From Escherichia virus TH43: a stretch of 64,000 bases of DNA. Below are positions 36,964 through 55,822 of the stretch, piece after piece. The notes under the pieces are model-generated. The model was not told the origin of the DNA, made no database searches, and saw only the letters and a list, made by a program, of their open reading frames with translations. The first letter of the stretch is position 1; every line of letters starts with the position of its first letter. The position numbers and the translations under genes are program-made. The stretch lies in sequence record MT446414.1. The stretch is one strand, 5' to 3'.

Positions 36964-37030
36964 GGTAAGGTAAGGTTAGCGGCCTTAATGGTCGCTAGTT
37001 TATCAAGATGCATTAATCGAAAAATAGTTG

Positions 37031-37058
37031 TTGACACGTCGAATCGTTATGATAAGAT
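37031..37058 (+). promoter_or_regulatory. strong sigma70-like early promoter P1
   Basis: TTGACA (37031-37036), 16-nt spacer, TAAGAT (37053-37058); A-rich tract upstream. Confidence 0.6.
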
Positions 37059-37104
37059 GTGCACATGGTCAGCGATGACATAAAACATCCGGCACTAAGT
37101 GCCC

Positions 37105-37117
37105 CGCTCTTTAATAA
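37105..37117 (+). promoter_or_regulatory. boxA-like antitermination element (copy 1)
   Basis: CGCTCTTTAATAA, one mismatch to rrn boxA core; preceded by hairpin GGCACtaaGTGCC (37091-37103), i.e. rrn-like boxB-then-boxA order. Confidence 0.55.
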
Positions 37118-37192
37118 TTTATCGTCTTGCCCTTTCGCAAAGATTCACGCGAGATAAGGGAAGAGAACAAAAAGAAGACGATAAAAAAAGAG

Positions 37193-37220
37193 TTGACAAG
37201 GTGAAACGTTCTGATAGAAT
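37193..37220 (+). promoter_or_regulatory. strong sigma70-like early promoter P2
   Basis: TTGACA (37193-37198), 16-nt spacer, TAGAAT (37215-37220); A-rich tract upstream. Confidence 0.6.
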
Positions 37221-37243
37221 GTTCACTAAGCAGTAAGAAACAC

Positions 37244-42082: not shown

Positions 42083-42307
42083 ATGAAGATTGACATTGAT
42101 AGTACGCCAGAGGTTGTAACTCTCGGAGACCTAAATCCGGGTGAAGTCTTCCAGTTTAACTACAATGAAACTCAATACTACATGCGTACTGCGTGTTATG
42201 GTGAAAACAAAAGTTATTTTGTTAACCTTTATACAGGTAAGCGTGATTCTGAGTGTAAATCGACTGTAGTCAGACCTGTACCTAACGCACAACTAACCAA
42301 CAAGTAA
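42083..42307 (+). CDS. small protein, PGDVF-motif family member 2
   Basis: LGDLNPGEVFQF motif; tandem to member 1. Confidence 0.5.
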   Translation: MKIDIDSTPEVVTLGDLNPGEVFQFNYNETQYYMRTACYGENKSYFVNLYTGKRDSECKSTVVRPVPNAQLTNK

Positions 42308-42431
42308 CATCGACTTATAGCCCTTGTGCTTATCAGAGGGCTATGTGAGGATGTTCCTCAATTAACTATAATCTCAATGCCATATGGCTCACCGCTAGGG
42401 CGAGACTTGTCTCAAACATCCGGTGATAGAC
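42308..42431 (+). repeat. conserved structured intergenic element, copy A
   Basis: Hairpin ATAGCCCT-12nt-AGGGCTAT (42317-42344), then GCTAGGG and second hairpin GAGAC..GTCTC, then AACATCCGgtGATAG; near-identical copy at 48221. Confidence 0.6.
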
Positions 42432-42609
42432 TAAAACCTGTTAATTTTCGAATGGCATTCCGATATGTAGGGGTATGTATCGGTTTGGGATAGAGAACAA
42501 TCTAGGGGTAGAAAGTTCTCGACAGTTTGTACAAGCGGAAGCCTTAACGTGTAGGGCTTCCCTTTATATTAACTGGCAATCCTGCCTCCATTAACAAAGA
42601 GAGAACGTT

Positions 42610-46049: not shown

Positions 46050-46325
46050 TATCGTGAAGGATTCTTACGAGAGTCCTTTGAGATAGGACTTCAGATCTCC
46101 TATCAACTAACCGCTCAATGTTGAGCATTTTAATCACATAAGCCCCTCATGGGCTGGGTTTAATGCCGGTAAGCGTTTTATGCTATCCACTACAGCATCG
46201 GATTGTTAGGTCTTACATGCAACATTAATTAATAGGATATGGGAGGATTCGTCCCCTCCCCCTATTTATGAAAGCATTCTTCCGAGAGTTCTCTCATAAA
46301 TTGGTCCATAACTAAAGGTGGTAAA

Positions 46326-46580
46326 ATGAAAGTTAACATGCCAGCAGGTAAAAATTCAATACCCCTCAGTGCTTTGCGACTTGGGGATTGCTTCATGTAC
46401 CCTAACAGTGAAGATGGTGATTTGTACATCTTACTGTCTACCGAGTTCTCAACTCGCTTGTGCATTAAGGGTGCGGACGAGCACAGACTTGTAGCCTGTC
46501 TTAACACAGGCCGAGCGACAGCGCCTCGTAAAGATGTTGCTGTTATTCCTATTAAAGCTGAAGCAATTATTAAGGAATAA
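46326..46580 (+). CDS. small protein, PGDVF-motif family member 4
   Basis: LSALRLGDCFMY motif; AAGGTGG upstream. Confidence 0.45.
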   Translation: MKVNMPAGKNSIPLSALRLGDCFMYPNSEDGDLYILLSTEFSTRLCIKGADEHRLVACLNTGRATAPRKDVAVIPIKAEAIIKE

Positions 46581-46583
46581 GCA

Positions 46584-46850
46584 ATGACAGTTCTTACTAT
46601 CAATAAGACTCGTGTTGCAGATATCCCTCTGACTGTTCAGGGGATTCTTCCCGGCTCTTTCTTTACCCTTAAAGAAGATAAAGAACAAACCCTTTACATG
46701 AAGGTAAACAAAAGCTCTAACGGTTCTGAATACTCTCGAGCCGTGTCTATGCAGAGTGGGTACGTTCGTAATATGGCACCTAATATGCCAGTTGGTGTTG
46801 TATTTGAATCAGCAACTCTGGATTTAGTGGAGAAGGTTAGTGAAACGTAA
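46584..46850 (+). CDS. small protein, PGDVF-motif family member 5 (divergent)
   Basis: GILPGSFFTL motif; tandem to member 4. Confidence 0.4.
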   Translation: MTVLTINKTRVADIPLTVQGILPGSFFTLKEDKEQTLYMKVNKSSNGSEYSRAVSMQSGYVRNMAPNMPVGVVFESATLDLVEKVSET

Positions 46851-47112
46851 AGATCATCCAAAATATGTGTCACTATTGGATGCAGCCCTTCTCTGCACAT
46901 ATTGGCTCCTCATTGTTGTTGGTGTCGTGCTAATAATATGTGGTGTCGTACAGTTCTTTATGTATCTGCAAAGCGTGTTAGATATCACATTAGCTAACAC
47001 TATAATCCTTGCAATTCTCGGTATTATTGCTTTCTGTGTGATTGTCTTCTTCGTTTGGTTATCTATGAACGACGACTCTACACACCTTCTATTGACAGGA
47101 GAAAATCAGTGA
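46840..47112 (+). CDS. small membrane protein (two transmembrane helices)
   Basis: Two hydrophobic helices; GTG start overlapping upstream gene. Confidence 0.4.
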   Translation: MKRKDHPKYVSLLDAALLCTYWLLIVVGVVLIICGVVQFFMYLQSVLDITLANTIILAILGIIAFCVIVFFVWLSMNDDSTHLLLTGENQ

Positions 47113-47293
47113 GAAAACGTGCCTACTCTGAAGAAGAAATGGTTAACCTGAAAGGCTTTGGTCAGCGACAGCCTGATGGCTCAGTTATCTGGTACATTAA
47201 CGGACAGAAAAAGGCAAGTAAATAAGCCCTCTTCTCTCCTCCCTTTAGCTACTATGACGCCTCTCTTTTCGGCGCTGTTTTGGAGCTTCAAAA

Positions 47294-47707
47294 ATGGCTG
47301 GGAAACTCCCCAACGTAAGCAAGAAATTGGCCTACCTCACGTATAAAGAAAACATTGATCTTCTGGTCAAGCTTTATCCGGCTTCATTCAACAAGCAATT
47401 CCCTCTTCCTTTGGAGCTTAACATCCATAAGGAAATAGCCCGTAAGACCGGTTGGTCAGCGGAGAAAACAAGCATGGTGCTCAACATCTGGACTACTCGT
47501 ATGGAGTATGTGATGATGGCCTGTAGCACTGGTAAACGCTTCAAGCTGCACTCTGTAGCTATGAAGATTCGTAGTCCTATTGACCCTGAGCCAATGGCTG
47601 GGTTCAGCAGCCGTCTGAAATCTTTCCGTGATCGTGGTCGTGTAGTGAAGTTTAAGCACGACTTCTCTTATAAGTTTGGATACGAAGCGTTCCAATTCGT
47701 TGTTTAA
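47294..47707 (+). CDS. FinO/ProQ-like RNA-binding protein
   Basis: LYPASFNKQFPLPLELNIHKEIA ... LNIWTT ... GKRFKLHS parallels the ProQ N-terminal FinO-domain pattern; GGAG upstream of ATG. Confidence 0.5.
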   Translation: MAGKLPNVSKKLAYLTYKENIDLLVKLYPASFNKQFPLPLELNIHKEIARKTGWSAEKTSMVLNIWTTRMEYVMMACSTGKRFKLHSVAMKIRSPIDPEPMAGFSSRLKSFRDRGRVVKFKHDFSYKFGYEAFQFVV

Positions 47708-47735
47708 TCTCTCTTTAATATAAGGTAATAGAAAC

Positions 47736-47969
47736 ATGTCTAAAGTTAGCGCAATTGATGCCATCCGCCAGCCGTTCCAGTTCCAGTCCAAATCAACCCA
47801 AACCTTCAGCGAACCTCGCCAGATTCGTCTGGGCGGCACAGAGAAATCTGTGTTTGATATTGCGAAAAATAAAAGCGTGACCATCGTCGAAGGTGGTGAG
47901 CTGGTTAATGTTTCCCATCGTATCCGCACTGGTAAAACTGCCAAAGATCGTGCTAAGAAAGGTCTGTAA
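47736..47969 (+). CDS. hypothetical protein, 77 aa
   Basis: ATG with AAGGTAA upstream. Confidence 0.45.
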   Translation: MSKVSAIDAIRQPFQFQSKSTQTFSEPRQIRLGGTEKSVFDIAKNKSVTIVEGGELVNVSHRIRTGKTAKDRAKKGL

Positions 47970-48220
47970 TGCAAATTGCTAATAAAACCCCTCCTGAATC
48001 AATTATCCAAGTAAAGGATATGTCACCGGGAGATGTATTTCGTGCAACGGAATATCCGGGGGATTTCTTTATTCGAATCCCCTCAGCATCTGTTGGTGGT
48101 ATCGCTAAACCGGTAACAGCAGTTCAGCTAAGTACGGGTCATCTCTTCCGTTTAGAGATTGATATGATTGTGATTCCTGTTCCAACAGCAATCCTCCGCT
48201 TCGACGGAGCCACAGAGTAA
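47969..48220 (+). CDS. small protein, PGDVF-motif family member 6
   Basis: VKDMSPGDVFRA motif; followed by repeat copy B, as member 2 is followed by copy A. Confidence 0.5.
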   Translation: MQIANKTPPESIIQVKDMSPGDVFRATEYPGDFFIRIPSASVGGIAKPVTAVQLSTGHLFRLEIDMIVIPVPTAILRFDGATE

Positions 48221-48354
48221 CATCTATAGCCCTTGTGAGTATCAGAGGGCTATGTGAGCTATTCTGGCTCAACTAACCTAAACTTAATTTAATCTTACCC
48301 GTATGGGGCCGATGCTAGGGAGAGGAACAGTCCTCGAACATCCGTCGGATAGAA
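48221..48354 (+). repeat. conserved structured intergenic element, copy B
   Basis: Hairpin ATAGCCCT-12nt-AGGGCTAT (48226-48253) nearly identical to copy A; second hairpin GAGGA..TCCTC covaries with GAGAC..GTCTC of copy A. Confidence 0.6.
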
Positions 48355-48461
48355 TATTTTAAGAGCAGGTTATCCACAGATATTGGGTGATATCTATTTA
48401 ATTGGCCTTAAAGCTTGGCTCTCTTAGGAGAGTCCTTTTTTAAGTTCAAAGAAGAGGTTGT

Positions 48462-48629
48462 ATGGATAATAAGTTGAAAGTTAAGTTCTTATTGGCAGCA
48501 ATCTTTATTTGCTTAGCCACCGTGGGGTTTGCCCGTGTGACTTCCTTTGTATCTTGTGAATTAAGCAAGAACAACAGAGGGTCTTATAACTGGCTTACCA
48601 ATCAATGTGATAAACAGGAGAAGTTATGA
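48462..48629 (+). CDS. small secreted protein, 55 aa
   Basis: Signal-peptide-like N-terminus; GAAGAGG upstream; ATGA-type overlap with next gene. Confidence 0.35.
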   Translation: MDNKLKVKFLLAAIFICLATVGFARVTSFVSCELSKNNRGSYNWLTNQCDKQEKL

Positions 48630-48988
48630 ACCTACGCCCCATCAAAGGCCATGTGAACCTGTCTACGCTGCATAAAGTAGCAAATGATTTGGGTGGCATG
48701 GACGAGAATGATTTGGAGCAGCAATTGCTCTGGATTGCTCATGGCATCAAGGCGGCAAAGGCCAAAATGGCTCGTGCACAAAGCAAGTTAAAGGCGAATA
48801 AATATCTTATTCGTCGTCGTAATACCTTACCTCAGGATGTGGTGAGTTTGGCTGTGGCAGGATACAATGCAGCAGAGGTAGAACTTCAGGAAGCAGAATT
48901 CGAAAAAATGCGCTTCCAAGAAAACTACCGAAACTTCCGTAGCATTGCCTACATTCGCAAATCTCTGGGCCTTCTGGTAGCAGAGTAA
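48626..48988 (+). CDS. hypothetical protein, 120 aa
   Basis: ORF with GGAG upstream. Confidence 0.5.
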   Translation: MNLRPIKGHVNLSTLHKVANDLGGMDENDLEQQLLWIAHGIKAAKAKMARAQSKLKANKYLIRRRNTLPQDVVSLAVAGYNAAEVELQEAEFEKMRFQENYRNFRSIAYIRKSLGLLVAE

Positions 48989-50228: not shown

Positions 50229-51179
50229 ATGTCAATCTCCGCATCGACTGCTCCGGTAACACCATCAGAGGACTTTGGTGAGTCAGTGTTCAGAGGGCGA
50301 GCTTGTTTTGGTACTTTCAACTGTCAGCATATGTATGCTGTTACAGACATTAATGGCGACAGTATCAATCTCTCAAGCCTTCGTGATAGAACTTCAGAAG
50401 TTGGAGTTATCAACTTCTGGCCTCACAATTTTTATGGCGTACCAGCTAAAGATATCGAAAGAGCTTTAGTTGAAGCAACAGACATTTTTAACTCAATGTC
50501 TTGCTATAAAAACATGTTCTCTGTCACTTCGGTGAACTCAGTTGCCGTGAACCTTCGAGACCACCCAGCAGACAAGGTGTTTACTGGATTAATGACCCTC
50601 CGTAGTTATCTGGATGGGGATTTTATGGGAATGGAGTTCCTTCAGGAAGGCGTTCAAGACAAGGAAGAGTTACTCAAGCGACAACGAATCGGCTTAGCTT
50701 TACGCTTAGCTGGTTTAAGTCGTAACTTCTTTGGTCGTTGGGATTATTCACATGATGTGGATACTGATGATGAATCAGCAGCGACCTATTTTACTGGCGA
50801 AATGAGTGCAATTGCATTCTTGCCACTGGTCTGTACCACTGACGAATTTTCTGAAAACGTATGGGTTCAGAACGTGTTCGGTGTTGGTGATAACAGAGAT
50901 GGTTATGTACGAAACCATAATGACGGAGTTCTTCGTAGTATGGCTCGTCGTCGTGACCAAGACCCTGACTATTACGAGAGTATGAGTGAGTGGTTGCGTC
51001 TCTGGTCAATGTGTGCAGGCCATAAACGTGAAGTATTAGATCAGCGTATGGACAGAATTACTGTTCGCAGTTTTATTGAACGCTTGATGCAAGCAGTACC
51101 TTCCTCAATGACACCAGAAGAAGCTGGTGCCCGTGTTGTTTCCCTTTTTGATGAACTTGTGGAGTATTACAATGACTAA
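50229..51179 (+). CDS. hypothetical protein, 316 aa
   Basis: Co-linear, tightly spaced with neighbours; no motif. Confidence 0.55.
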   Translation: MSISASTAPVTPSEDFGESVFRGRACFGTFNCQHMYAVTDINGDSINLSSLRDRTSEVGVINFWPHNFYGVPAKDIERALVEATDIFNSMSCYKNMFSVTSVNSVAVNLRDHPADKVFTGLMTLRSYLDGDFMGMEFLQEGVQDKEELLKRQRIGLALRLAGLSRNFFGRWDYSHDVDTDDESAATYFTGEMSAIAFLPLVCTTDEFSENVWVQNVFGVGDNRDGYVRNHNDGVLRSMARRRDQDPDYYESMSEWLRLWSMCAGHKREVLDQRMDRITVRSFIERLMQAVPSSMTPEEAGARVVSLFDELVEYYND

Positions 51180-51978
51180 GCGTGCTTTCCTTATTGGTTC
51201 TGACCCTGAAATGTTTGTTCGTACTGCTTCTGGTGTTATCACCTCTGTGGCTGGTAAGCTGGGCTGTTCTAAAGATAACAAAATTGATCTGGCCCCTGAT
51301 GTTCGTCTTCAAGAAGACAACGTTCTGGCTGAATTCGATATTAACCCACAGAAAGGGTTCGAAGCGTTTGATGATAACATCCAGCGTGGTATTGATCTGA
51401 CCAACAAAGTTCTTAATGAACGTGGTATGGAAGCTGCACTTGGGATTAGTTCTCATGTGTACACTTCTGAAGAGCTGCAATCATTCCATCCATCAGCCTT
51501 TGTGTTTGGCTGTACTCCTGATTTCAACGCCTTCACTGGTCAGAAAAACCCATCTCCGGTAGCGACAGACAAAGGTCTTCGTACTGCTGGCGGTCACGTA
51601 CACCTCGGTGTTGCAGGGTCTTTGGAAGTAACTCGACAGACTCAGATGATGCTGGGTGTTCTGTGTGATTACTTCTTGTCACTTCCAGCGGTAATTATGG
51701 ATAAGGACACTCGTCGTAAAGAGCTTTACGGCAAGGCATCTGCTATTCGTTATAAAGATTATGGTATTGAATACCGTTCTCTGTCGAACTTCTGGATTGG
51801 TGAACAGTCCACTCGTAAGTTTGTTTACGATCAAGTTGATAAGGTTATTCAGGGCTGTGATATGGAAATTCTCATGTCTCTGCACTCCCGTCTGCCTATC
51901 GAAAAGCTTCACAACATCATCAATAGCAACGATGTTAAAGAAGCGGATAAGTTCTCCTCTAAACTCCAGATTATCTAA
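51172..51978 (+). CDS. amidoligase-like protein (GCS2 / glutamine-synthetase-like fold), paralog A
   Basis: N-terminal LIGSDPEMFV and central GGHVHLGV resemble carboxylate-amine ligase metal/ATP motifs; ATG 51172 with GGAG upstream. Confidence 0.45.
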   Translation: MTKRAFLIGSDPEMFVRTASGVITSVAGKLGCSKDNKIDLAPDVRLQEDNVLAEFDINPQKGFEAFDDNIQRGIDLTNKVLNERGMEAALGISSHVYTSEELQSFHPSAFVFGCTPDFNAFTGQKNPSPVATDKGLRTAGGHVHLGVAGSLEVTRQTQMMLGVLCDYFLSLPAVIMDKDTRRKELYGKASAIRYKDYGIEYRSLSNFWIGEQSTRKFVYDQVDKVIQGCDMEILMSLHSRLPIEKLHNIINSNDVKEADKFSSKLQII

Positions 51979-51987
51979 GGTGTTATC

Positions 51988-52614
51988 GTGAGCCTGTTAA
52001 GAGATTTTCAGCATTATTATTGCGGAACATGGATTGCCCAACGTGCAGAACGAGGGATTAATTTACCTCTTTATGTACTCAACGTGAACCAAGCAAACCG
52101 CTTTGGAGAAGATGACTTCTCTCACGAAGCAGAAATGGCCTTAACTTTTGAAGTTGAACGCTGGTCTAAGAACGCCGAAGGGCAGTTTGAACGACAGGTT
52201 GTTCAGGGCATTCCTGTGTTTGATCAAAGCCTTATTCTGGAATCTCCAGATGTGGGATACTTACAACACGGCAACAACATGGTAAGCTGGACTCATATCA
52301 ACCCTGTTCGTCAGCGAGCTAAAGGTCTGATGGGGAACAAATTACGTGGTGCACCTCCTTCAATGGGTCGTTCGATTCCGGGAGAGCTGGTGTATAATCT
52401 GTTTAATCCTGACTTCGAAGGTCTGGTTACTCGCTTCATCTACATCAACCCTGTCGATGGTAAAGTTTATTACAAAGGGGCACTTGTAGGTCAAGTTGAT
52501 CTTTCTGCTGGTTACGGCGACAATGGTCGTCAATCTTTAAATCTTCTGGAGAAGTTCAAGCATATTTCTTCAGATCTGTCATCATATAATGTAGAGTTGG
52601 TGGAAACGTTATGA
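51988..52614 (+). CDS. hypothetical protein, 208 aa
   Basis: GTG start with AAGGTG upstream; stop overlaps next start. Confidence 0.5.
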   Translation: MSLLRDFQHYYCGTWIAQRAERGINLPLYVLNVNQANRFGEDDFSHEAEMALTFEVERWSKNAEGQFERQVVQGIPVFDQSLILESPDVGYLQHGNNMVSWTHINPVRQRAKGLMGNKLRGAPPSMGRSIPGELVYNLFNPDFEGLVTRFIYINPVDGKVYYKGALVGQVDLSAGYGDNGRQSLNLLEKFKHISSDLSSYNVELVETL

Positions 52615-53711
52615 CAACCGTAGCACAAGTTTTTGGATACCGTAATGCTCGTCTGGCTGAGCCGCACCCAAGCATCGCTTTTCAGTGTGGTATTGGCATC
52701 GAGCTGGAAGTTGAAGGAACCTCTGAAATTGATGCAGACCTTTGGGTTTGTACTGAAGATGGTTCACTTCGTGATGGCTGTGAGATGGTTTGTGCACGGC
52801 CTTATAACGGTGTAGAATTGCTTAGTGCTATTAACAATCTGAGTGAAGCAGTACAAGACTCTGAAGCTGAAGGGACTTGGCGCTGCTCTACTCACGTTCA
52901 TATGGATATGCGTGACGCTGATAGTAACATCCTGAAGAAAGTAATTCTTGGATGGACGTTCTATGAAAAGATGATGTTCAAATGTTCTGGATACCATCGC
53001 TATCGTAGCAACTTCTGTCCTGCCTTTGCTGTTGTTCAAGCACAGGTAATGAATGCTTCCGCAGCGTTCAACCGAGATGGTGAAGCCTTCTTCAATACTC
53101 TTGTTAATAGCTGGGACAAGTACACCTCCCTTAACCTATTACCTCTGGCTCAGTTTGGTTCTGTTGAATTTCGTATCTCAGAGCCAAAGTGGAAGAAAAG
53201 CCAACTCCTTAATCTGGTCAACCGCTTCTTGGTTCTCAAGAAACTAGCTGTTGAGTATGCAGATTTGGACAATGAAGCATATGTTGAGAAACTGAATGAG
53301 CTACGCTTCGCTCCTATGATTCAGTATCTGCCTCTGGACTACACACCTAATGATGATGACCTGACTGGCGGTTATCGTTTGGCTCGTGATATTCTGTTCT
53401 GTCGTGAACATTCTGTTACTCTGGTTGGTCGTGTTCGTGTACAGCAGACTGGACCTGATGGTGAAATCCTTATCAACTTGCGTGACATGGGTGACTTCTA
53501 CGGTTTCTTGGGATATGTACGAGGTAATGCTAACTCTGTTTATGAAGAGATCATGACCTATTACACCCCTCAGATTGAAAACACTCGAATCGCAACGGTT
53601 CGTGAAATTCGTCACATGTTTGCTCTGATGCGTGAATCAGGTAGCAGTGATAATAACATCACCGATTACATTCCAGACCATCTGGAAATGCAATTAGAAC
53701 GACTGCTGTAA
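52611..53711 (+). CDS. amidoligase (GCS2-like carboxylate-amine ligase), paralog B
   Basis: GIGIELEVEG near N-terminus and CSTHVHMDM downstream, the E-x-E ... H-V-H arrangement of GCS2-type ligases. Confidence 0.5.
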   Translation: MTTVAQVFGYRNARLAEPHPSIAFQCGIGIELEVEGTSEIDADLWVCTEDGSLRDGCEMVCARPYNGVELLSAINNLSEAVQDSEAEGTWRCSTHVHMDMRDADSNILKKVILGWTFYEKMMFKCSGYHRYRSNFCPAFAVVQAQVMNASAAFNRDGEAFFNTLVNSWDKYTSLNLLPLAQFGSVEFRISEPKWKKSQLLNLVNRFLVLKKLAVEYADLDNEAYVEKLNELRFAPMIQYLPLDYTPNDDDLTGGYRLARDILFCREHSVTLVGRVRVQQTGPDGEILINLRDMGDFYGFLGYVRGNANSVYEEIMTYYTPQIENTRIATVREIRHMFALMRESGSSDNNITDYIPDHLEMQLERLL

Positions 53712-53818
53712 CACAATGGGCGCTCTGATAAAGGGCGCATTTAAAGGTTAATTAGATGAAAGGGTTTACCCTTCAGGTGGATTAGAAAATTTGTGGTATC
53801 GTATTAGCTGGGGGCAAC

Positions 53819-55822
53819 ATGACCTCCACAGACTTAGACGTATTCAACCAGCTTCTGTATGCTGGGGTCTTCCGTGGTCAGCACTCAACTGGTGTGTTCG
53901 GTCAGCGTAAAGGTGATGAAAAAGTATTTTCTTATAAAGAAGCACTTCCTTCCTATGCCTTCATGCTCCAGACAGGGTACACGAATCTTACTAAGGGGCT
54001 TACGAACTATGTAGTTCCTCCATCGTGGATTGTTGGTCATAGCCGACATGCCACACGTGGTGCTGTCAATGCTCGAAATGCTCACCCATTCTCTCATGGT
54101 GACATTACTCTGGTTCATAATGGTACACTGTTAGATCAGGAACTGTTACCAGATCATAAGAATTTCGAAGTTGATAGCGAAAACATCTGTCATTCAATCA
54201 ACACCATCGGCGCAGCAGAGACTATCCAGAAGTTGGATGGTGCGTTCACTTTAATCTGGCATGACGCCAAAGACAATACTCTGCATATCATTCGTAACGA
54301 TGAACGTCCTTTCCATCTGGCCCGTTGTGGTCTGGATTGGTTTGGTGCTTCTGAAGAAGATATGTTGATGTGGATTCTTAATCGTTCCAAGTCACACAAG
54401 AACCGTATCAATGATCACTTTGAGTGTAAAGTGGGAACTGAATACATCTTTGATTTGTCTGGCAACCGTATGACTCTGACTCAAGAGGTGGAGCACAAGC
54501 TTCCGGTTTTTACGGTAACGAGTCGCTGGGGCGGCTATTACTCGAACTCCTCTCTATATCAGAACCAACAGACAAACAAGTCAAGCAGCAGCACAAGCGA
54601 CATTTACGGAAACAAAGACGACAAGCCCGGCGTGACAAGCGGGGACATTCGTCGTCGTAAAGCGATTGAAGATCAGAATAAACTGGCTGCCGATCGTGGT
54701 CTTCCGTATCGTCGTGACGGTCGTGTGGATATCATCCCTCACGAGTTCCACGCTTACAACAACACTGACCGTGGTAAGATGGTTGGTTATATTTATGATG
54801 ATGCTGCTCAAGAGTATGTTGAGGGTGATGTTCATAATGTAGCCAAGAGTGAATACTTGAAGGCTCTCGAAAACCCAAAGGTGGTGTATCGCGGGACGGT
54901 TGCTTGTATCTCCGAAGTGGACAGTATGATTCGCCTCGTACTCACTTCAGGGCTGTTTGTTGATGCTACCGATAAGGAGCCTCAAAGCACCACCGCTGAT
55001 TTTGATGATGATATCCCTTTTGATTTAGAAGACTCCTTCATCACTAAGAATGGTGTGGAAGTCACCCGTAAGTTCTGGGAATCACATTCTCATGGTGATT
55101 GTGGCGGTTGTGACAAGCACATTGAATGGAAAGATGCTAAGAAAGCTGTGTTCGCTTACCAAGCATATTGGCATCCGGCCTGTTTCGAAGCATTGTCCAA
55201 ACCGTCTGAAGAAGATGAAGACATTCCTTTGGGTGTCTGTGCTGTATGTGGCAATGTTAAAACTGATTTCGAGTTTGATAACGAAATGAGTAAACTTCGT
55301 GGTGAAGATATTTGTTATGTCTGTGCCAAAGAGATCAAAGACAAAGTGACTAACACTACATTGTCTGAAGGTTACATTTGGACTAAAGCAGTTGACACAA
55401 CCAACCCACGTCGCCCTGAAGTAGCAGTTCGTGTTGATCAGCGTATGCTTAGCCGAATGACTGTAATGGCTAGTTCAGCTAAACGTTCTGGTGATATTGA
55501 GCTGTCTGATGTTCCAAACTCTTATTTGGAAAAACGTGGTGGCGATACCTATGCCATCTCTGTTTATGGTCCAAAGAATGCCCCAAAGGAGGTGCCCGCT
55601 GAGAAAGCGGAAACATTTCCAGAAAAGCAAACAACTCTCCGAAAAACAGTTGTCAGTTACGACGGACAACGAACAGCTGAGTTCACAAAAGCCCTCTGGA
55701 CTTCAATTGGGTTTTGTGCAGTCTGTTATAAACAAATTCCGTGGCGTGATGCAGAAGTTTGCTCACTAAACAAAGAAAACAGGGTGATCTGTAATTCAGA
55801 TTACTGTAAAGGTAAACATTAA
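53819..55822 (+). CDS. class-II glutamine amidotransferase-like (Ntn fold) domain fused to a Cys-rich C-terminal module
   Basis: FRGQHSTG, GHSRHATRGAVNARNAHPF, VHNGTL, DSENICH align to conserved blocks of GlmS/AsnB-type GATase domains, but no N-terminal Cys; C-terminal half has several CxxC clusters. Confidence 0.55.
   Translation: MTSTDLDVFNQLLYAGVFRGQHSTGVFGQRKGDEKVFSYKEALPSYAFMLQTGYTNLTKGLTNYVVPPSWIVGHSRHATRGAVNARNAHPFSHGDITLVHNGTLLDQELLPDHKNFEVDSENICHSINTIGAAETIQKLDGAFTLIWHDAKDNTLHIIRNDERPFHLARCGLDWFGASEEDMLMWILNRSKSHKNRINDHFECKVGTEYIFDLSGNRMTLTQEVEHKLPVFTVTSRWGGYYSNSSLYQNQQTNKSSSSTSDIYGNKDDKPGVTSGDIRRRKAIEDQNKLAADRGLPYRRDGRVDIIPHEFHAYNNTDRGKMVGYIYDDAAQEYVEGDVHNVAKSEYLKALENPKVVYRGTVACISEVDSMIRLVLTSGLFVDATDKEPQSTTADFDDDIPFDLEDSFITKNGVEVTRKFWESHSHGDCGGCDKHIEWKDAKKAVFAYQAYWHPACFEALSKPSEEDEDIPLGVCAVCGNVKTDFEFDNEMSKLRGEDICYVCAKEIKDKVTNTTLSEGYIWTKAVDTTNPRRPEVAVRVDQRMLSRMTVMASSAKRSGDIELSDVPNSYLEKRGGDTYAISVYGPKNAPKEVPAEKAETFPEKQTTLRKTVVSYDGQRTAEFTKALWTSIGFCAVCYKQIPWRDAEVCSLNKENRVICNSDYCKGKH

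Follow-up and report, generated by a model that had tools for sequence, protein, structure and literature searches.

A basic FinO/ProQ-domain protein of Suseptimavirus coliphages and its candidate RNA ligands

The locus

The sequence analyzed here, referred to throughout as the window, is a 64,000-nucleotide stretch of Escherichia virus TH43 DNA (MT446414.1). It belongs to an ECBP2/SU7-like (Suseptimavirus) coliphage, a ∼77-kb podophage of the phiEco32 group (Gordonclarkvirinae). An ORF at 47294..47707 on the plus strand runs from ATG to TAA and encodes 137 amino acids; the ORF list, dN/dS, Pfam family PF04352 and PHROG 18901 support its annotation as the coding sequence of a FinO/ProQ-domain protein. 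A Shine-Dalgarno sequence, GGAG, can be read on the same strand at 47283..47286, 8 nt before the ATG, and phage SU7 has an annotated ribosome-binding site at the equivalent position. The encoded protein has a pI of 10.0 and a net charge of +12.8, of which +4 falls in residues 98–137. Every GenBank record labels the gene “hypothetical protein.”

Over the 3.5 kb around the gene, identity is 97.6% to Escherichia phage StefiGeyer_Bas88 and 96% to ECBP2. Using tblastn, we found near-identical copies (95–99% amino acid identity) in ∼20 Escherichia phage records, of ∼100 that share the region; several of these gene-bearing ECBP2/SU7-like records are filed under Kuravirus in GenBank. For most of the group's remaining Escherichia phage records, tblastn did not detect the gene; an example is the Kuravirus 4E8, where different small ORFs occupy its place. 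Thus, the gene is accessory within the subfamily.

The gene is under strong purifying selection. Comparison of eight orthologues by the Nei-Gojobori method gave dN/dS values of 0.04–0.15 at a dS of ∼0.25; the orthologues differ at 2–7% of nucleotides, yet just 14 of the 137 residues vary. Residues 6–87 are invariant except for I44V, and the variable positions fall in residues 88–125. The sequence-only reading that preceded this analysis had called a 137-codon gene at 47294–47707; with these dN/dS values the gene is real, and its coordinates are exact. A 172-aa ORF on the opposite strand was rejected as a shadow of this frame.

The gene lies within a run of co-oriented small ORFs (46326–48220, then 48462–48988) situated downstream of a tRNA-Arg and upstream of amidoligase, glutamine-amidotransferase and DnaB-like genes. 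The neighboring small ORFs contain no Pfam domains pointing to a functional module. A terminator scan found terminator-like hairpins bounding the run, at 46241 and 48417, and an enrichment of such sites in the 40–50 kb interval (17 versus 7.2±2.7). The hairpin at 48417 is part of the intrinsic terminator that closes the operon of the gene (48417..48442, plus strand), in which the stem GGCTCTC/GAGAGTC is followed by T6; this terminator is annotated in SU7 and 4E8, and its stem is invariant in nine phages. The same scan reported a minus-strand terminator-like hairpin, 47314–47297, overlapping the start codon. We dropped this candidate; codons 2 and 5 vary within its stem and loop among orthologues, and it is therefore probably fortuitous.

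The gp36-type promoter motif TAATGTATA was not enriched and was absent near the gene. Two near-consensus sigma-70 promoters lie ∼10 kb upstream, at 37020–37230 on the plus strand (TTGACA-17-TAAGAT near 37034–37062 and TTGACA-17-TAGAAT near 37194–37222), with short hairpins after each. These promoters probably mark the early promoter region of the phage and could yield short transcripts. Also on the plus strand, 51127–55822 carries a phiEco32-type COOH-NH2 ligase, amidoligase and glutamine-amidotransferase cluster, a module that is known in this phage group and is poorly understood.

Family membership and predicted fold

The sequence-only reading had proposed a FinO/ProQ-like RNA chaperone and had named an HMM search with the ProQ/FinO model as one check. 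The protein matched PF04352 with 27.2 bits against a gathering score of 27.0 (E = 4.1e-6), over residues 18–87 and model positions 5–78 of 109. Taken on its own, this direct score is significant but borderline, at 0.2 bits over the curated threshold. The PF04352 label had also been precomputed on a 96%-identical cluster (P0001), and in PHROGs the protein falls in phrog_18901 (E = 1.6e-62), a function-unknown family. There was no match at cutoff in NCBIfam and none for the protein in PADLOC, and a word-indexed homologue search returned the near-identical cluster only. Pfam DUF7343 (20 bits versus 27.6) and L31 were rejected as chance matches, as was L31 in NCBIfam (E = 0.007, 16.5 bits versus a cutoff of 38).

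We searched 1.84 billion representatives exhaustively with phmmer, which yielded 45 proteins at E ≤ 1e-3; the family statistics given below refer to the 40 of these homologues that were aligned. All 40 match Pfam ProQ individually, the best at 1.7e-20. When the single protein was compared with PDB sequences by phmmer, it gave noise only; PDB matches by sequence required a profile of homologues. This profile matched the ProQ N-terminal domain (5nb9, 2.7e-14) and RocC (7rgu, 1.8e-9), and also NMB1681 (3mw6) and FinO (1dvo). A six-frame hmmsearch of the window with family profiles found no second FinO-like ORF.

From the 40-sequence alignment, AlphaFold2 predicted a structure with a mean pLDDT of 90.9 and a pTM of 0.85, with helices at residues 10–27, 44–52, 56–66, 70–79, 98–110 and 114–128 and a β-hairpin at 81–95. 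In a Foldseek comparison with the PDB, the first 26 matches were all FinO-domain structures at a probability of 1.00 (RocC, NMB1681, FinO, Lpp1663), after which the E-value leaps above 1; structural comparison, the other computational check proposed, thus agrees with the original suggestion. The top structural match in BFVD is the SU7 orthologue, which bears the UniProt name “ProQ/FinO domain-containing protein.” In the predicted model, the FinO-domain fold, a helical core with a β-hairpin, is present. The input to this model was itself a FinO-family alignment, so its support is not wholly separate from that of the sequences.

The FinO-domain core comprises residues 10–97 (47321..47584, plus strand), that is, the first four helices and the β-hairpin, which has a 3-residue insertion (VAMKIRS) relative to the family. 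Residues 98–110 (47585..47623, plus strand) form, according to the model and the ProQ/RocC alignment, the last FinO-domain helix, equivalent to RocC α7. They are followed by a clade-specific basic C-terminal helix (114–128) and tail, residues 111–137 (47624..47704, plus strand), delimited from the model and the alignment. This end is predicted with a pLDDT of 96–97, and nothing corresponding to it is present in the ProQ N-terminal-domain and RocC FinO-domain sequences that were aligned; the solved structures align over ∼97–98 residues only. Some of the phage homologues conserve the C-terminal helix, and the positions of F120, F124 and F128 are aromatic in most homologues having the C-terminal region. 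Pfam revealed no second domain at E up to 10, and the model shows a two-helix C-terminal end only. The architecture is therefore that of a “minimal” FinO-domain protein, like NMB1681 or Lpp1663.

A skeptical view would hold that the resemblance to ProQ is due to chance, or that the ORF is not a real gene: the direct Pfam score barely passes (27.2 versus 27.0), the single-sequence phmmer search of the PDB and the NCBIfam search were both empty, and the GenBank records say hypothetical. The computations reject this view and leave it practically no likelihood. Sequence profile, transitive homology and predicted structure all support the FinO/ProQ family reading, and the protein is almost certainly a member of the FinO-domain family.

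RNA-contact residues

We mapped onto the protein, by alignment, the contact residues described in the RocC-RocR crystal structure (PMC9674577) and in ProQ genetics (PMC7192607). Two residues of the 3′-nucleotide pocket defined in those studies are kept, Y72 (codon 47507..47509, plus strand; ProQ Y70, RocC Y87) and, at the base of the pocket, R82 (codon 47537..47539, plus strand; ProQ R80, RocC R97). Both are invariant in 40 of 40 family members, and in RocC the substitution R97M cuts binding >200-fold (PMC9674577). Also kept are T67 (ProQ T65, RocC T82), the helix N-cap S55 (ProQ S53, RocC S70) and R69 (RocC R84), the last again invariant in 40/40, and E47 occupies the position of ProQ D41.

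Other contacts are changed. Relative to ProQ, K35 is replaced by E41, K54 by A56 and R58 (RocC R75) by S60, and further changes are G37 (RocC G52) to N43, L71 to V73, D82 to K84 and G85 to S87. Mutation of residues at these positions cripples RNA binding by ProQ or RocC (PMC9674577, PMC7192607); RocC R75D, for example, causes a >100-fold binding loss (PMC9674577). Three of the four conserved basic residues on the RNA face of ProQ are lost, one of them by charge reversal (K35→E41). In the N-cap helix motif, the capping S55 is present, S60 replaces the Arg, and the equivalent of ProQ K54 is A56.

The β-turn Gly (ProQ G37, RocC G52) has been described as “nearly completely conserved” (PMC9674577). 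At this position the window protein has N43, and its 40 relatives have Gly in 35 cases and Asn in 4. Asn commonly stands in for Gly in turns, and the effect of N43 on the fold is probably small.

Among the 40 relatives, the R58 position is Ser in 13, Arg in 6 and Lys in 1, and at the K35 position 17 have Ala, 8 Lys and 5 Glu. Judging from this alignment, some of the changes (those at the R58 and K35 positions) are traits of the whole phage-type relative set. Others are peculiar to the Suseptimavirus protein, falling where relatives keep the β-turn Gly (35/40), the post-Arg Asp (23/40) and the hairpin Gly (32/40). As aligned, the RNA-contact surface is partly conserved, with the 3′-end pocket kept and the basic hairpin contacts replaced. 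A kept pocket combined with the loss of three basic residues suggests that RNA binding is likely and that its mode may differ.

The same substitutions could instead mean that a FinO scaffold has been repurposed, having lost canonical hairpin binding and acquired as its target a host protein, DNA, or competition with host ProQ function. K35→E41, K54→A56 and R58→S60 are losses from the RNA-binding face of ProQ, the near-universal β-turn Gly is Asn, and an extra conserved C-terminal helix is present. However, the two most conserved RNA-contact residues of the family (pocket Tyr and Arg) and the N-cap Ser are kept, invariant and strongly selected, and the protein is very basic (+12.8). Moreover, since the R58 position is Arg in just 6 of 40 relatives, all of which match Pfam ProQ, the change there is a clade trait and not decay. 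We consider repurposing unlikely, though not negligibly so.

Comparison with other FinO-domain proteins

The N-terminal FinO domain of E. coli ProQ can be aligned with the phage protein at ∼20% identity over the blocks quoted in the sequence-only reading, and alignment to ProQ and RocC reproduced those block pairings exactly. The description “ProQ-like” holds for the FinO domain and fails for the rest of the molecule: ProQ has a linker and a Tudor-like C-terminal domain, whereas the phage protein has neither, with PF04352 as its only Pfam domain, and K35, K54 and R58 of ProQ are not conserved in it. The phage protein is neither an orthologue of ProQ nor a recent host capture.

In RocC, whose structures 7rgu/7rgt include the RocR terminator, residues G52, K71 and R75 correspond to N43, A56 and S60 of the phage protein, and N115 and K119 correspond to M101 and S105. 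RocC, in addition, has a long C-terminal region and works with a single dedicated sRNA. The minimal ProQ proteins NMB1681 (Neisseria meningitidis, 3mw6) and Lpp1663 (Legionella, 6s10) are also ∼20% identical to the phage protein. Relative to them, the phage protein has the 3-residue insertion in the β-hairpin and the conserved C-terminal helix (residues 114–128), is without the conserved Arg on the N-cap helix, and is encoded by a virulent phage. Plasmid FinO (1dvo) has a long N-terminal helix that is absent from the phage protein, and FinO and FopA act in plasmid copy-number or transfer control, in contrast to the lytic phage setting here. We found no cognate antisense RNA of the FinO/FopA partner type for this gene, and the minus-strand hairpin at the start codon is not conserved.

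Homologues detected by tblastn (E = 4e-11 to 3e-5) occur in Salmonella 7-11-like phages, Erwinia and Hafnia Kolesnikvirus, Aeromonas Lahexavirus and Shewanella phage KASIA (KASIA_p031). Several depositors have labeled such proteins “ProQ/FinO family protein” or “RNA chaperone” and, in Erwinia Kolesnikvirus, “proQ” or “sRNA-binding protein.” They are 28–41% identical to the window protein, share with it the motifs YPxxFNK and W-x-x-R-x-E-Y and the β-hairpin Arg, and reach a TM of up to 0.78 in BFVD. Four of them score 37–69 bits on Pfam ProQ, versus 27 for the window protein, and most retain the β-turn Gly and the post-Arg Asp, unlike the window protein. The 7-11-type proteins have an additional C-terminal domain of ∼100 aa.

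This extra domain of the ∼230-aa homologues (P0012, P0014, P0018, P0027 and P0030; for example, 7-11 AEK82037) contains the motifs GNHPFRDG and HTSxVV and recalls the two-domain layout of ProQ. Phage 7-11 also has a second FinO-fold protein in BFVD, G0X575. In Salmonella phage 7-11 (2483–3187) and Hafnia phage SPARTY (2501–2962), the FinO-like gene adjoins NAD-salvage genes, encoding nicotinamide phosphoribosyltransferase and ribose-phosphate pyrophosphokinase; none lie near the gene in the window. The two phage groups are unrelated, and the adjacency may be coincidental or may mark a module that they share.

Structured RNAs near the gene

Two hairpins, at 42317 and 48226, had been put forward in the sequence-only reading as possible ligands. 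Both are present and they are nearly identical to each other, but they are not isolated: each is helix 1 of a larger conserved structured RNA. These RNAs, A and B, are paralogous, covarying and ∼230–260 nt long, and Rfam contains no family for either. In each of them, the feature typical of FinO-type ligands, a terminator with a U-tail, is at the opposite end from the cited hairpin.

Copy B is a structured non-coding element on the plus strand (48218–48445) that extends from the stop codon of the ORF at 47969..48220, the last of the operon of the FinO gene, to the terminator at 48417–48434 plus T6. Compared with shuffled sequences, it folds with z = −3.1. It was found in 101 phage records, which cover all Gordonclarkvirinae genera at 84–100% identity and, at ∼70% identity, the Salmonella 7-11/SE131 group, which belongs to another family; among phages whose adjacent FinO genes have a dS of ∼0.25, it is 97–100% identical. 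RNAalifold, applied to nine sequences, gave 59 pairs in nine helices with 99.2% of cells paired. Eleven pairs are double-compensatory, versus 4.9±1.5 in shuffled alignments (0/500) and 0–2 in slid controls, and every helix contains at least one.

No conserved promoter was found upstream of copy B, and it is thus probably made as the 3′ end of the operon. In its terminator, which lies in an mRNA 3′ region, an A-rich 5′ flank pairs with the U6 tail. Such an arrangement has been reported as the signature of ProQ-specific ligands (PMC7367173).

Copy A, the paralogous RNA, extends on the plus strand from ∼42305 to 42565, that is, from the stop codon of the ORF at 42083..42307 to a terminator-like hairpin at 42537–42561. 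Its first ∼50 nt are nearly identical to copy B, with helix 1 at 42318–42345; the remainder has diverged, and its helices are compensated relative to copy B (TCACCG/CGGTGA, GAGAC/GTCTC, AATTAAC/GTTAATT). Copy A has a folding z of −3.35 and is conserved across 98 phage records; a profile made from copy B recovers it at E = 6.8e-12. Matches to AACATCCG at 37084 and 42709 were rejected as RNA copies; one lies among the sigma-70-type promoters and the other within an ORF.

Could the protein be the dedicated partner of RNAs A and B, with a hairpin-recognition surface adapted to them? Copy B belongs to the operon of the gene and ends 0.7 kb downstream of it, and both Suseptimavirus and the distantly related Salmonella 7-11 group carry the protein gene and RNA B on the same strand, spaced by 0.5 kb in the window and 5.6 kb in 7-11. 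RNA B, however, is far more widespread than the gene (∼100 records versus ∼20) and is present in 4E8 without it, and the two are therefore not strictly coupled. A search for related loci with a 10-sequence alignment returned ECBP2 and 7-11 themselves only. We regard a dedicated partnership as doubtful; were it to hold, it would give virulent phages their first FinO-protein/RNA system.

Discussion

Fold, family membership, selection and pocket conservation are findings of the present analysis, and the role is inferred from the family. The explanation that we favor, with moderate confidence, is that the gene encodes a basic single-domain FinO/ProQ RNA-binding protein acting on terminator-ended RNAs. 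During infection, the protein would bind RNAs that end in an intrinsic-terminator hairpin and a 3′-OH oligo-U tail; by analogy within the family, such terminator and 3′-end binding is reasonably probable. Capping of these ends would shield the RNAs from 3′ exonucleases and polyadenylation, and the protein might also aid RNA-RNA pairing, as FinO, FopA, RocC and ProQ do. Since the residues that contact the hairpin backbone in ProQ and RocC are replaced (E41, A56, S60), hairpin contacts would probably come from other basic residues, with R69, K46/R50/K51, K91/R93 in the enlarged β-hairpin and the basic C-terminal helix as candidates. Among candidate ligands, transcripts of the phage itself that end in a terminator are the most obvious, and they include the conserved structured RNA that closes the operon of the gene.

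Loss of these Lys and Arg residues points to a different way of holding the hairpin; if so, the ligand set need not match that of host ProQ. This bears on an alternative with the same biochemistry, in which the ligands are host RNAs and the phage protein substitutes for or competes with host ProQ. For example, it might keep ProQ-dependent type I antitoxin sRNAs stable after sigma-70 shut-off, which would prevent an abortive-infection-like release of toxin, or it might reprogram host mRNA stability. An accessory distribution (∼20 records) is typical of host-interaction genes, and phiEco32-type phages shut off host transcription via gp79 (PMC12276001). The ligands of ProQ include RNAs of toxin-antitoxin loci and prophages (PMC9977716), and ProQ has been described as guarding 3′ ends against poly(A) polymerase (PMC12086684). 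PADLOC, on the other hand, gave no match for the phage protein, and with ∼20% identity to the ProQ N-terminal domain and without the hairpin-binding residues, it need not share the client list of ProQ. We find a role centered on host RNAs improbable and continue to favor the binding of terminator-ended RNAs in general.

In Proteobacteria, three major classes of sRNA-associated proteins are recognized, and FinO/ProQ proteins form one of them; they are known mainly from chromosomes and plasmids. The transcription program of phiEco32-family relatives has been characterized. Homologues on bacteriophages were mentioned in a 2023 review (PMC9977716), and the paper on Shewanella phage KASIA noted its FinO/ProQ homologue as found “rarely in phage genomes” (PMC8541194). 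Our literature search found no experimental study of any phage FinO-domain protein. Since the SU7 orthologue already carries a “ProQ/FinO domain-containing” label in UniProt, the assignment of the domain cannot count as new; it is public in UniProt and not in GenBank. As an annotation, the window protein is an ordinary, database-level case, a somewhat divergent member of the FinO/ProQ family.

Its interest lies in what it lacks and what it keeps. Without the hairpin-binding Arg and Lys residues of ProQ and RocC and with the 3′-end pocket in place, the protein offers a natural test of the contacts that the domain requires. The unannotated structured RNAs nearby provide concrete candidate partners for it. 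If the protein binds the 3′ ends of phage or host RNAs in infection, the hijacking or provision of an RNA chaperone would be an added mechanism of phage takeover.
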